Shown here in pieces: positions 10,327-11,745 of a stretch of 64,000 nt of DNA. The DNA lies in sequence record PQ666540; one strand, 5' to 3'. Source of the DNA: Shigella phage sb2. The position numbers were made by a program, and so were the translations under genes. Every line of letters begins with the position of its first letter. Position 1 is the first letter of the stretch. Under the pieces are notes generated by a model. That model saw only the letters and a list, made by a program, of their open reading frames with translations, was not told the DNA's origin and did no database searches.

Positions 10327-11745
10327 TTATGGATAGGTATAGATTATACCAGTTTCTAAAGCAGTTTTATGAATGATGTATCCATTACGCGATTCTTGAA
10401 CATCGACTTCTGGATAGTCTTTTATCATCTTCTGAAGAGTGTAGCGGTGCAAGTAATACTTACTATCTGGGTCGTCAGTTTTCCAATCTTTACCTTCTTC
10501 GGTCATTTTTTGGATTTCATCCATAACCCACCAACCGCACCAGATATAAGCTGAAGTACGATGTGGAAGAGGATGAACATAAGGCAATTCACCTTCTGGT
10601 TCCGGAGCAACTTTATCAGTTACCTGAACTTGACCAGTCGCTTTAACTGTTTTACTATCATAGTCGGTTTCTGTAACGACAGCAGTAACTTCAATAGTTT
10701 TACTTCCAACAGATGAGGTGTCAACGGTGTATACGTTAGTTGACCCTTCTACAGGAGAAGAATCTTTCTTCCATGAATAAGTAATTTGTGCTGCTCCAGG
10801 CGCGCCAGTAACATTAGCAGTAAATGTAGCCGAAGCATCTTGCTGAACGTTAATAGAAGGAGGAGTCAATGCAATCTGTGGATTCATTGTCTTCTTATTA
10901 ACCGTCAATGTTACTTCATTGGAAGTAACTTCCTTTTCATTGTAATTTTCAGCCGTTACTTGGGCTACACATTTAATTCTTTTTACTCCACTTGTAGTTG
11001 GAGTATAGTTAAATGTAGAGTTAGTTTCTCCATCGACCAGAGAATCATCTACATACCATTTATATGTAGCAGTTGCGCCATCGGGTTGAGAATCTAAGGC
11101 AGCGGTAAATTCAATTGGAGTTCCAATTACTCCAACTGAAGGACTATTAGGAGTTACAGCCAAGGTAGTCGTCTGCGTCTTTTTATTAACTGTCAATGAT
11201 ACTTCATTAGAAGTAACGCTCAGTGCATCATAATCAGCCGCAGTTACTTGAGCTATGCACTTGATTTTTTTAACTCCGCTTGTAGTAGGAGTGTAATTGA
11301 ATGTAGCAGAAGTTGCTTCGCTTACAGGAGAACCGTCAACGTGCCATTGATATGTGGCAGTTGCGCCTGATGGCTGTGAAGCTAAGGCAGCAGTAAATTC
11401 AATTGGAGTTCCGATTACTCCAGCTGGAGGACTAGCAGGAGTTACTGCTAAGGTAGTTGTTTGCGTCTTCTTATTAACTGTGATAGTTGTAGTAGTTTCT
11501 GCTGTTTCAGGATCAGTATCTGGAATTGTATTTGTTGCAACTACTTTAATAGTCTTTTGACCGGCAGGTCCTTTTAATACATAACCAAAAGTTGCTTCAG
11601 CTCCATCTTGTGGAACATTATCTACACTCCAAGCATAGGTAATAGTTCCACCTTCAGTTTCACCACTGGGTGTAGCAGTAAACTGCTGAGTCTGATCAAT
11701 AACTCCAGTAGGTGTTTTAGGAGTTATATCAACTGTAAAAGCCAT
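10327..11745 (-). CDS. hoc: Hoc, highly immunogenic outer capsid protein, with four Ig-like domains (tandem duplication)
   Basis: 472 aa; N-terminus MAFTVDITPKTPTGVID; repeated VNKKTQTTTLAVTP... units; C-terminal capsid-binding region ...WCGWWVMDEIQK. Confidence 0.9.
   Translation of the reverse strand: MAFTVDITPKTPTGVIDQTQQFTATPSGETEGGTITYAWSVDNVPQDGAEATFGYVLKGPAGQKTIKVVATNTIPDTDPETAETTTTITVNKKTQTTTLAVTPASPPAGVIGTPIEFTAALASQPSGATATYQWHVDGSPVSEATSATFNYTPTTSGVKKIKCIAQVTAADYDALSVTSNEVSLTVNKKTQTTTLAVTPNSPSVGVIGTPIEFTAALDSQPDGATATYKWYVDDSLVDGETNSTFNYTPTTSGVKRIKCVAQVTAENYNEKEVTSNEVTLTVNKKTMNPQIALTPPSINVQQDASATFTANVTGAPGAAQITYSWKKDSSPVEGSTNVYTVDTSSVGSKTIEVTAVVTETDYDSKTVKATGQVQVTDKVAPEPEGELPYVHPLPHRTSAYIWCGWWVMDEIQKMTEEGKDWKTDDPDSKYYLHRYTLQKMIKDYPEVDVQESRNGYIIHKTALETGIIYTYP
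10903..11478 (-). repeat. two tandem ~288 bp direct repeats encoding Hoc Ig-like domains 2 and 3
   Basis: 96-aa units (aa 90-185 and 186-281) highly similar at protein level. Confidence 0.7.

Follow-up and report, generated by a model that had tools for sequence, protein, structure and literature searches.

An additional Ig-like unit in the Hoc decoration protein of Shigella phage sb2 and its place in the Tequatrovirus Hoc length series

The head decoration protein Hoc (highly immunogenic outer capsid protein) of phage T4 consists of three Ig-like domains followed by a non-Ig C-terminal domain that binds the capsid, and it is present as one molecule per gp23 hexamer, or 155 per capsid, each forming a fibre of 180 Å (PMC10385173). 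Through its Ig-like domains Hoc adheres to mucin glycans and to bacterial surfaces, and the key adherence residues sit in different Hoc domains in different phages (PMC11853027, PMC10385173). The number of domains is variable as well: 650 Hoc homologues carry between one and ten Ig-like domains on a conserved C-terminal domain, with ten in phage Muldoon (PMC10385173), and the Hoc of ΦPNJ-9 is without domain 3 (PMC11853027). A conserved C-terminal anchor joined to a variable Ig string is the architecture that the Hoc proteins of ΦPNJ-9, Serratia phage Muldoon, RB49 and Klebsiella phage PMBT63, the last with an extra Ig-like domain relative to T4, have in common with the protein analysed here (PMC13435897, PMC11853027, PMC10385173). 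These four are distant homologues, however, with Ig domains that are no orthologues of the repeated cassette in the present protein, and their gains and losses are independent.

We analysed a stretch of 64,000 nucleotides from Shigella phage sb2 (sequence record PQ666540), referred to as the window, to which all positions below refer, and in which hoc encodes a protein of 472 aa with a tandemly repeated Ig-like unit. Our literature search returned general statements on variable Hoc domain number and cases in other phages, and found no explicit description of a 472-aa Tequatrovirus Hoc, of a 376/472/568/664 series or of the A/B/C cassette orthology presented below, the 650-sequence supplementary alignment of PMC10385173 lying outside its coverage. 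The variable number of Ig domains in Hoc is already published and the 472-aa architecture is already found in RefSeq genomes; the length series and the orthology of the cassettes are a small addition that elaborates a known theme.

The hoc gene of the window and its domains

According to the ORF list, hoc occupies positions 10327-11745 on the minus strand and encodes 472 aa plus a stop, and its reading frame is intact. A phmmer search against PDB sequences matched T4 Hoc (PDB 5vf3_Z, 376 aa) at E 9e-220 in a two-piece alignment, pairing query residues 1-137 with T4 1-137 and query residues 205-472 with T4 109-376, so that the window protein is T4 Hoc plus exactly 96 aa, with the surplus inside domain 2. 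The initial annotation had given T4 Hoc as a protein of 376 aa with three Ig-like domains and had proposed one extra tandem Ig-like unit relative to it, and both statements hold, the length being that of the PDB entry, the domain number that given in PMC10385173, and the unit being accounted for by the 96-aa surplus. [quoted passage not shown] The window protein is thus a bona fide Hoc of five domains, four Ig-like and one capsid-binding, as it combines the N-terminal string of Ig-like domains and the capsid-binding C-terminal domain with the position of the gene between inh and 24.3/24.2/rnlB.

The gene order inh-hoc-24.3-24.2-rnlB is common to the window, T4, pSs-1, ECp13 and PP01, and the records of ECp13, PP01 and pSs-1 give the name hoc to their orthologue. 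In the window, inh (11755-12435) is the upstream neighbour of hoc and uvsW (12486-13997) follows in the order annotated in relatives, while the homologues of 24.3 (10016-10225) and 24.2 (9751-10029) and rnlB (8737-9741) lie downstream. The first 25 kb are 97.4% identical to Shigella phage pSs-1, a Tequatrovirus and the closest genome overall, and the source of the window is a Tequatrovirus, that is, a T4-like coliphage or Shigella phage.

The five domains follow one another on the minus strand. Ig-like domain 1 (aa 1-89, positions 11479-11745) aligns with T4 Hoc 1-89. It is followed by the two copies of the 288-nt repeat, which we call unit 2a (aa 90-185, positions 11191-11478), an A-type first copy in which the best stretches of Pfam Ig_2, BiPBP_C and PKD_3 fall, and unit 2b (aa 186-281, positions 10903-11190), a B-type second copy with the best stretch of Pfam PKD at residues 195-268. 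Ig-like domain 3 (aa 282-377, positions 10615-10902) aligns with T4 Hoc 186-281 and contains Pfam I-set and Ig_3 matches at 289-374, so that matches to Pfam PKD, Ig_2, Ig_3 and I-set cover the Ig-like units. [quoted passage not shown] It keeps the ESRNG loop, at aa 451-455, and the YVHPLPHR and CGWW motifs. The ESRNG loop and Tyr, His, Trp-Trp and Arg residues are the gp23*-contacting elements of T4 Hoc (PMC10385173). T4 Hoc (PDB 5vf3, 8t1x, 8t9r and others) is hence the same gene at the same locus, with the loop and the aromatic contact residues conserved, and the C-terminal domain of the window protein is predicted from this conservation to bind the centre of each gp23 hexamer.

An AlphaFold2 model made from a 32-sequence alignment contains four all-beta domains of the beta-sandwich type, with pLDDT around 90 across residues 1-377 (83-92 in domain 1, about 89-95 in unit 2a and about 93-96 in unit 2b), and an alpha/beta C-terminal domain of low confidence (pLDDT 40-65). 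Foldseek searches of the PDB with this model gave strings of four Ig domains as top matches, namely the four N-terminal Ig domains of Dscam1 and D1-D4 of ICAM-5, at E of about 1e-14; TM-scores were low (0.15-0.34), as the interdomain geometry of beads on a string is arbitrary, and we therefore used the E-values and the type of match. Both repeat units are accordingly predicted, on the basis of the model, to fold as Ig domains.

Divergence of the two repeat units

A repeat search returned two direct copies of 288 nt at 10889-11176 and 11177-11464, with a spacing of 288 and 77% identity, and Tandem Repeats Finder reported a period of 288, 2.1 copies, 78% matches, 0% indels and a score of 736. 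The span 10903-11478 given in the initial annotation corresponds exactly to codons 90-281 of hoc. In this domain register, 223 of 288 nt match, where the expected match fraction is 0.26 (binomial tail 4e-74) and the best of 10,000 shuffles reached 102 matches. At the protein level, residues 90-185 and 186-281 are identical at 73 of 96 positions (76%), in frame and without indels, and both units start VNKKTQTTTLAVTP. The two adjacent, highly similar 96-aa units encoded by direct repeats of about 288 bp are thus confirmed as they were first described. Domain 3 lies outside the repeat, because its nucleotide identity to unit 2b is 38%.

The repeat search also found three linker segments of 24 nt, placed 288 nt apart: the first between domain 1 and unit 2a (…TIT VNKKT…, 11465-11488), the second at the internal repeat junction between units 2a and 2b (…SLT VNKKT QTTT…, 11177-11200), and the third between unit 2b and domain 3 (…TLT VNKKT MNPQ…, 10889-10912), all on the minus strand. 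An RNA or non-coding reading of the repeat was dismissed, since the window contains no tRNAs or Rfam matches anywhere, and two antisense ORFs within hoc on the plus strand (10786-11097 and 11354-11560) gained no support.

The two units are considerably diverged at silent positions. Third codon positions are 62.5% identical between them, against about 85% at positions 1 and 2, and the Nei-Gojobori method gives a dS of 0.77, a dN of 0.156 and an omega of 0.20. For domain 1, domain 3 and the C-terminal domain, dS between the window and six other phages is 0.09-0.45. As judged from their omega, both copies are under purifying selection, and a gene-wide signal of positive selection between them is absent. 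The copies differ at 14 of 43 positions in predicted loops and at 9 of 53 in strands, a weak excess in loops; we considered it as possible evidence that binding surfaces are under diversifying selection and dismissed it, as the trend is not significant (Fisher p = 0.09).

The window holds another tandem pair, two adjacent ORFs of 685 aa on the minus strand at 22905-24962 and 24966-27023, which are paralogues with 41% identity over their full length. In pSs-1, the annotation of the corresponding region names two Alt-like RNA polymerase ADP-ribosyltransferases. The pair is old and has diverged far more than the Hoc units.

Unit number and unit identity across Tequatrovirus

A megablast search with hoc against 50,697 phage records returned 678 matching records, and in 597 of them a single place covers 80% or more of the query. 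When records were sampled evenly along the megablast ranking, 21 of 51 full-coverage records had a hoc of about 1419 nt, and the other 30 had a T4-like gene of 1131 nt that aligns in two pieces. The group of about 1419 nt, with two units, includes PP01, pSs-1, ECp13, NBG2 and the 474-aa wV7, and its RefSeq label is 'Hoc-like head decoration'. A similar distribution emerged from a collection of 5.8 billion proteins, where the best 120 clusters at 90% identity comprise 74 of 376 aa, 29 of 472 aa and 7 of 568 aa, the other 10 being a few residues off these lengths. Three-unit genes, encoding 568 aa, occur in about 23 phage records (tblastn with a 568-aa query), among them UGKSEcP1/2, YUEEL01, T4_ev151 and several ESh phages. 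No longer forms were found than those of vB_EcoM_FJ1 (MZ170040.1, 88355-90349) and slur03 (310-2304), whose hoc of 1995 nt encodes 664 aa, with four tandem domain-2 units and six Ig-like domains.

The norm for Tequatrovirus Hoc is therefore a length of 376 + 96n aa, with 376, 472, 568 and 664 aa corresponding to one to four units, and the window Hoc belongs to the second most common length class as an ordinary, widespread two-unit allele. The features of this class are all present: a length of 376 + 96 aa, SLT-VNKKT-QTTT at the internal junction, and a first unit of A type. The notion in the initial annotation that the extra domain is distinctive of sb2 did not survive this comparison, because reference Hoc proteins of the same length and domain count exist in number: about 40% of the evenly sampled matches are 1419 nt long, and the RefSeq genomes of PP01 and pSs-1 share the architecture.

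Among its closest counterparts, ECp13, PP01 and pSs-1 (472 aa each) and wV7 (474 aa) have the domain count and the linker junctions of the window, with two additional residues in wV7, and are set apart from it by allelic differences alone. The hoc of ECp13 is 94.3% identical to that of the window at the nucleotide level. The longer proteins of 568 aa (UGKSEcP1, T4_ev151, YUEEL01) and 664 aa (slur03, vB_EcoM_FJ1) are built from the same 96-aa unit, with VNKKT linkers and an A-type unit first, but have one or two units more than the window.

To relate the units to one another, we built a neighbour-joining tree of 31 units from 14 phages (288 nt per unit, 200 bootstraps), bearing in mind that recombination breaks the assumptions of such a tree for hoc units. 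The first copies of all ten multi-copy genes, that of the window included, form a single clade, 'A', with 100% bootstrap. A second clade, 'C', also at 100%, contains the last copies of pSs-1, UGKSEcP1, T4_ev151, FJ1 and slur03 as well as the only unit of fFiEco06. All other units make up 'B', a heterogeneous group with 34% support as a whole and with well-supported subclades; in one of these, the window's second unit is joined by its counterparts from ECp13, wV7 and PP01 and by the only unit of RB5, and the one unit of T4 likewise belongs to the B group. One-unit genes hence carry B (T4, RB5) or C (fFiEco06). Two-unit genes are A-B in the window, ECp13, PP01, wV7 and KMB23, and A-C in pSs-1, the three-unit genes of UGKSEcP1 and T4_ev151 are A-B-C, and the four-unit genes of FJ1 and slur03 are A-B-B'-C, with B2 and B3 in the middle. 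In no gene of the 14-phage tree were a gene's own copies each other's nearest relatives. The same positional relationship is seen in pairwise comparison, where each unit of the window is 93% identical to the ECp13 unit at the same position and 74-78% identical to the one at the other position.

Given a dS of 0.77 and the grouping by position across phages, the copies are old and did not arise by an event in sb2, contrary to the recent duplication that the initial annotation implied, in which copies would be expected to group by phage. For the assignment of units we rely on the nucleotide clades with 100% bootstrap alone. Typing at the protein level, attempted with 155 units from 111 proteins, was fuzzy, with 89% identity within types against 75-81% between them, and a clean A/B/C scheme for proteins was dropped as the clusters overlap. 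A protein cluster of single-copy genes that appeared 'A-like' is mostly B-like at the nucleotide sites that discriminate A from B in the one member examined, VIPECOOM01.

In relation to T4, whose domain 2 is a single unit, the window adds an A-type unit in front. The domain 2 of T4 is 84% identical in nucleotides to unit 2b versus 80% to unit 2a, and unit 2b is closest to the single domain 2 of RB5 and T4. At the A/B-discriminating sites, the T4 unit is of B type with an A-like patch at its 3' end, and unit 2b has an A-like patch at its 5' end and fits neither type at a few sites, which implies that patchy exchange between cassettes occurs.

Variation is concentrated at this locus. While pSs-1 is 97.4% identical over positions 1-25000 of the window, identity in hoc is 87%, and its second cassette is a different one, with A-C instead of A-B, so that hoc is a local hotspot of divergence. 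The best match of hoc, ECp13, differs from the best match of the genome, pSs-1, and this mismatch indicates mosaic exchange at hoc. A further difference lies beside the gene. The gap between inh and uvsW in the window (12436-12485) is about 50 nt, and T4 and T4_ev151 hold an ORF of about 206 aa there, a homing endonuclease in the T4 record, which is missing in the window, pSs-1, ECp13, PP01 and UGKSEcP1, amounting to presence or absence of a mobile gene next to hoc. T4_ev151 (LR597660.1) has this T4-like endonuclease ORF next to inh, yet, unlike T4, a three-unit hoc of 568 aa.

Probable origin of the array and predicted consequences for the capsid fibre

The internal junctions of the multi-unit genes all read …TSNEV(S/T)LT-VNKKT-QTTTLAVTP…, except that VNKKE takes the place of VNKKT where the first two units of T4_ev151 and slur03 meet. 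They consist of the end of domain 2, a linker of the domain 2/3 type (VNKKT) and the start of domain 2 (QTTTLAV), and such hybrid junctions are the pattern expected of unequal crossover within the short V-x-x-K-T linker. The linker between domain 1 and domain 2 is VQNKT or VKNKT in the 13 other phages compared and VNKKT in the window, where all three linkers are consequently of the VNKKT type and yield the three 24-nt repeats. The VNKKT at 11465-11488 is possibly a small conversion tract that made the three linkers alike.

We consider it very probable that the hoc of the window is a widespread two-unit allele drawn from an old set of cassettes, whose extra unit was inherited and did not arise in sb2. 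Domain 2 of Tequatrovirus Hoc would then be made of old, diverged 96-aa cassettes, with A first, a heterogeneous B and C last, which occur in one to four tandem copies per phage and of which the window has A and then B. In the course of evolution, unequal recombination in register at the conserved interdomain linkers and framework segments would have shifted copy number, and the cassettes would have been differentially retained or exchanged, with patchy transfer of sequence from one cassette to another. The array itself could go back to a four-unit ancestor with subsequent losses, to stepwise gains or to assembly from diverged alleles.

A variant of this history, in which the two-unit gene was built by unequal recombination between co-infecting phages with diverged single-copy alleles of domain 2 and later spread by recombination, the copies already being about 77% identical when they became neighbours, seems unlikely to us, although several observations speak for it. 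Recombination is intense among T4-like phages, hoc has diverged much more than the sequence around it, as the comparison with pSs-1 illustrates, and single-copy units of C type (fFiEco06) and B type (RB5, T4) exist; the hybrid linker junction fits unequal crossover within a genome and between genomes alike. However, no single-copy gene falls inside the A clade among the 14 phages, so that no A-type donor was seen, and the 'A-like' single-copy proteins, judging from VIPECOOM01, are mostly B-like. This scenario differs from the inherited two-unit allele only in the origin of the array, and not in what the present gene is.

A recent duplication private to the sb2 lineage, which would make the repeat an unstable substrate for expansion and contraction, is in our opinion scarcely credible: the units are indeed adjacent, in frame, of equal length and free of indels, and the three- and four-unit forms show that copy number can change, but the dS of the pair is two- to eightfold that between orthologues elsewhere in hoc, each copy is far closer to its ECp13 counterpart than to its own neighbour (77%), the first copies form a fully supported clade across 10 phages, the copies share no identical stretch longer than 20 nt, and the two-unit architecture is present in hundreds of records.

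Returning to the inherited cassettes, the suggestion in the initial annotation that the repeat is a substrate for recombination is supported for the family, in which copy number has changed between one and four units, but not for this particular pair, which is a poor substrate. With 77% identity and so short a longest identical run, homologous unequal exchange between the copies of the window should be rare on laboratory time scales, and heterogeneity of PCR product length in the phage stock is not expected.

As hundreds of deposited T4-like phage genomes already have an annotated 472-aa Hoc, the description of this form in sb2 is of little value as a discovery. Its practical relevance is modest and stems from the role of Hoc as the mucus-adherence protein of the BAM model and as a scaffold for phage display and vaccines. 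Those who use sb2 for therapy or display should note that its Hoc has four Ig-like modules and not three, and that residue numbers past aa 185 run 96 ahead of those in T4. The family-wide presence of one to four old cassettes would lend itself to a neat, small study of decoration-fibre evolution, though specialists will not find it surprising.

With regard to the phage particle, the fibre formed by the 472-aa Hoc should be longer than the 180 Å, four-domain fibre of T4 by about one Ig domain, or some 40-45 Å if length scales with domain number, and the protein would provide one more variable module for adhesion to mucin glycans or bacterial surfaces, at up to about 155 sites per capsid. Beyond this, we tentatively propose that domain 2 may act as a cassette system that is recombined between phages at the linkers, in which copy number, and with it fibre length, and cassette identity, and with it ligand specificity, might be selected by the mucosal or bacterial surfaces that the phages meet. 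It is the adaptive meaning that is hypothetical here; the cassette pattern itself is visible in the unit identities at the nucleotide and protein levels, the unit tree and the A/B-discriminating sites.
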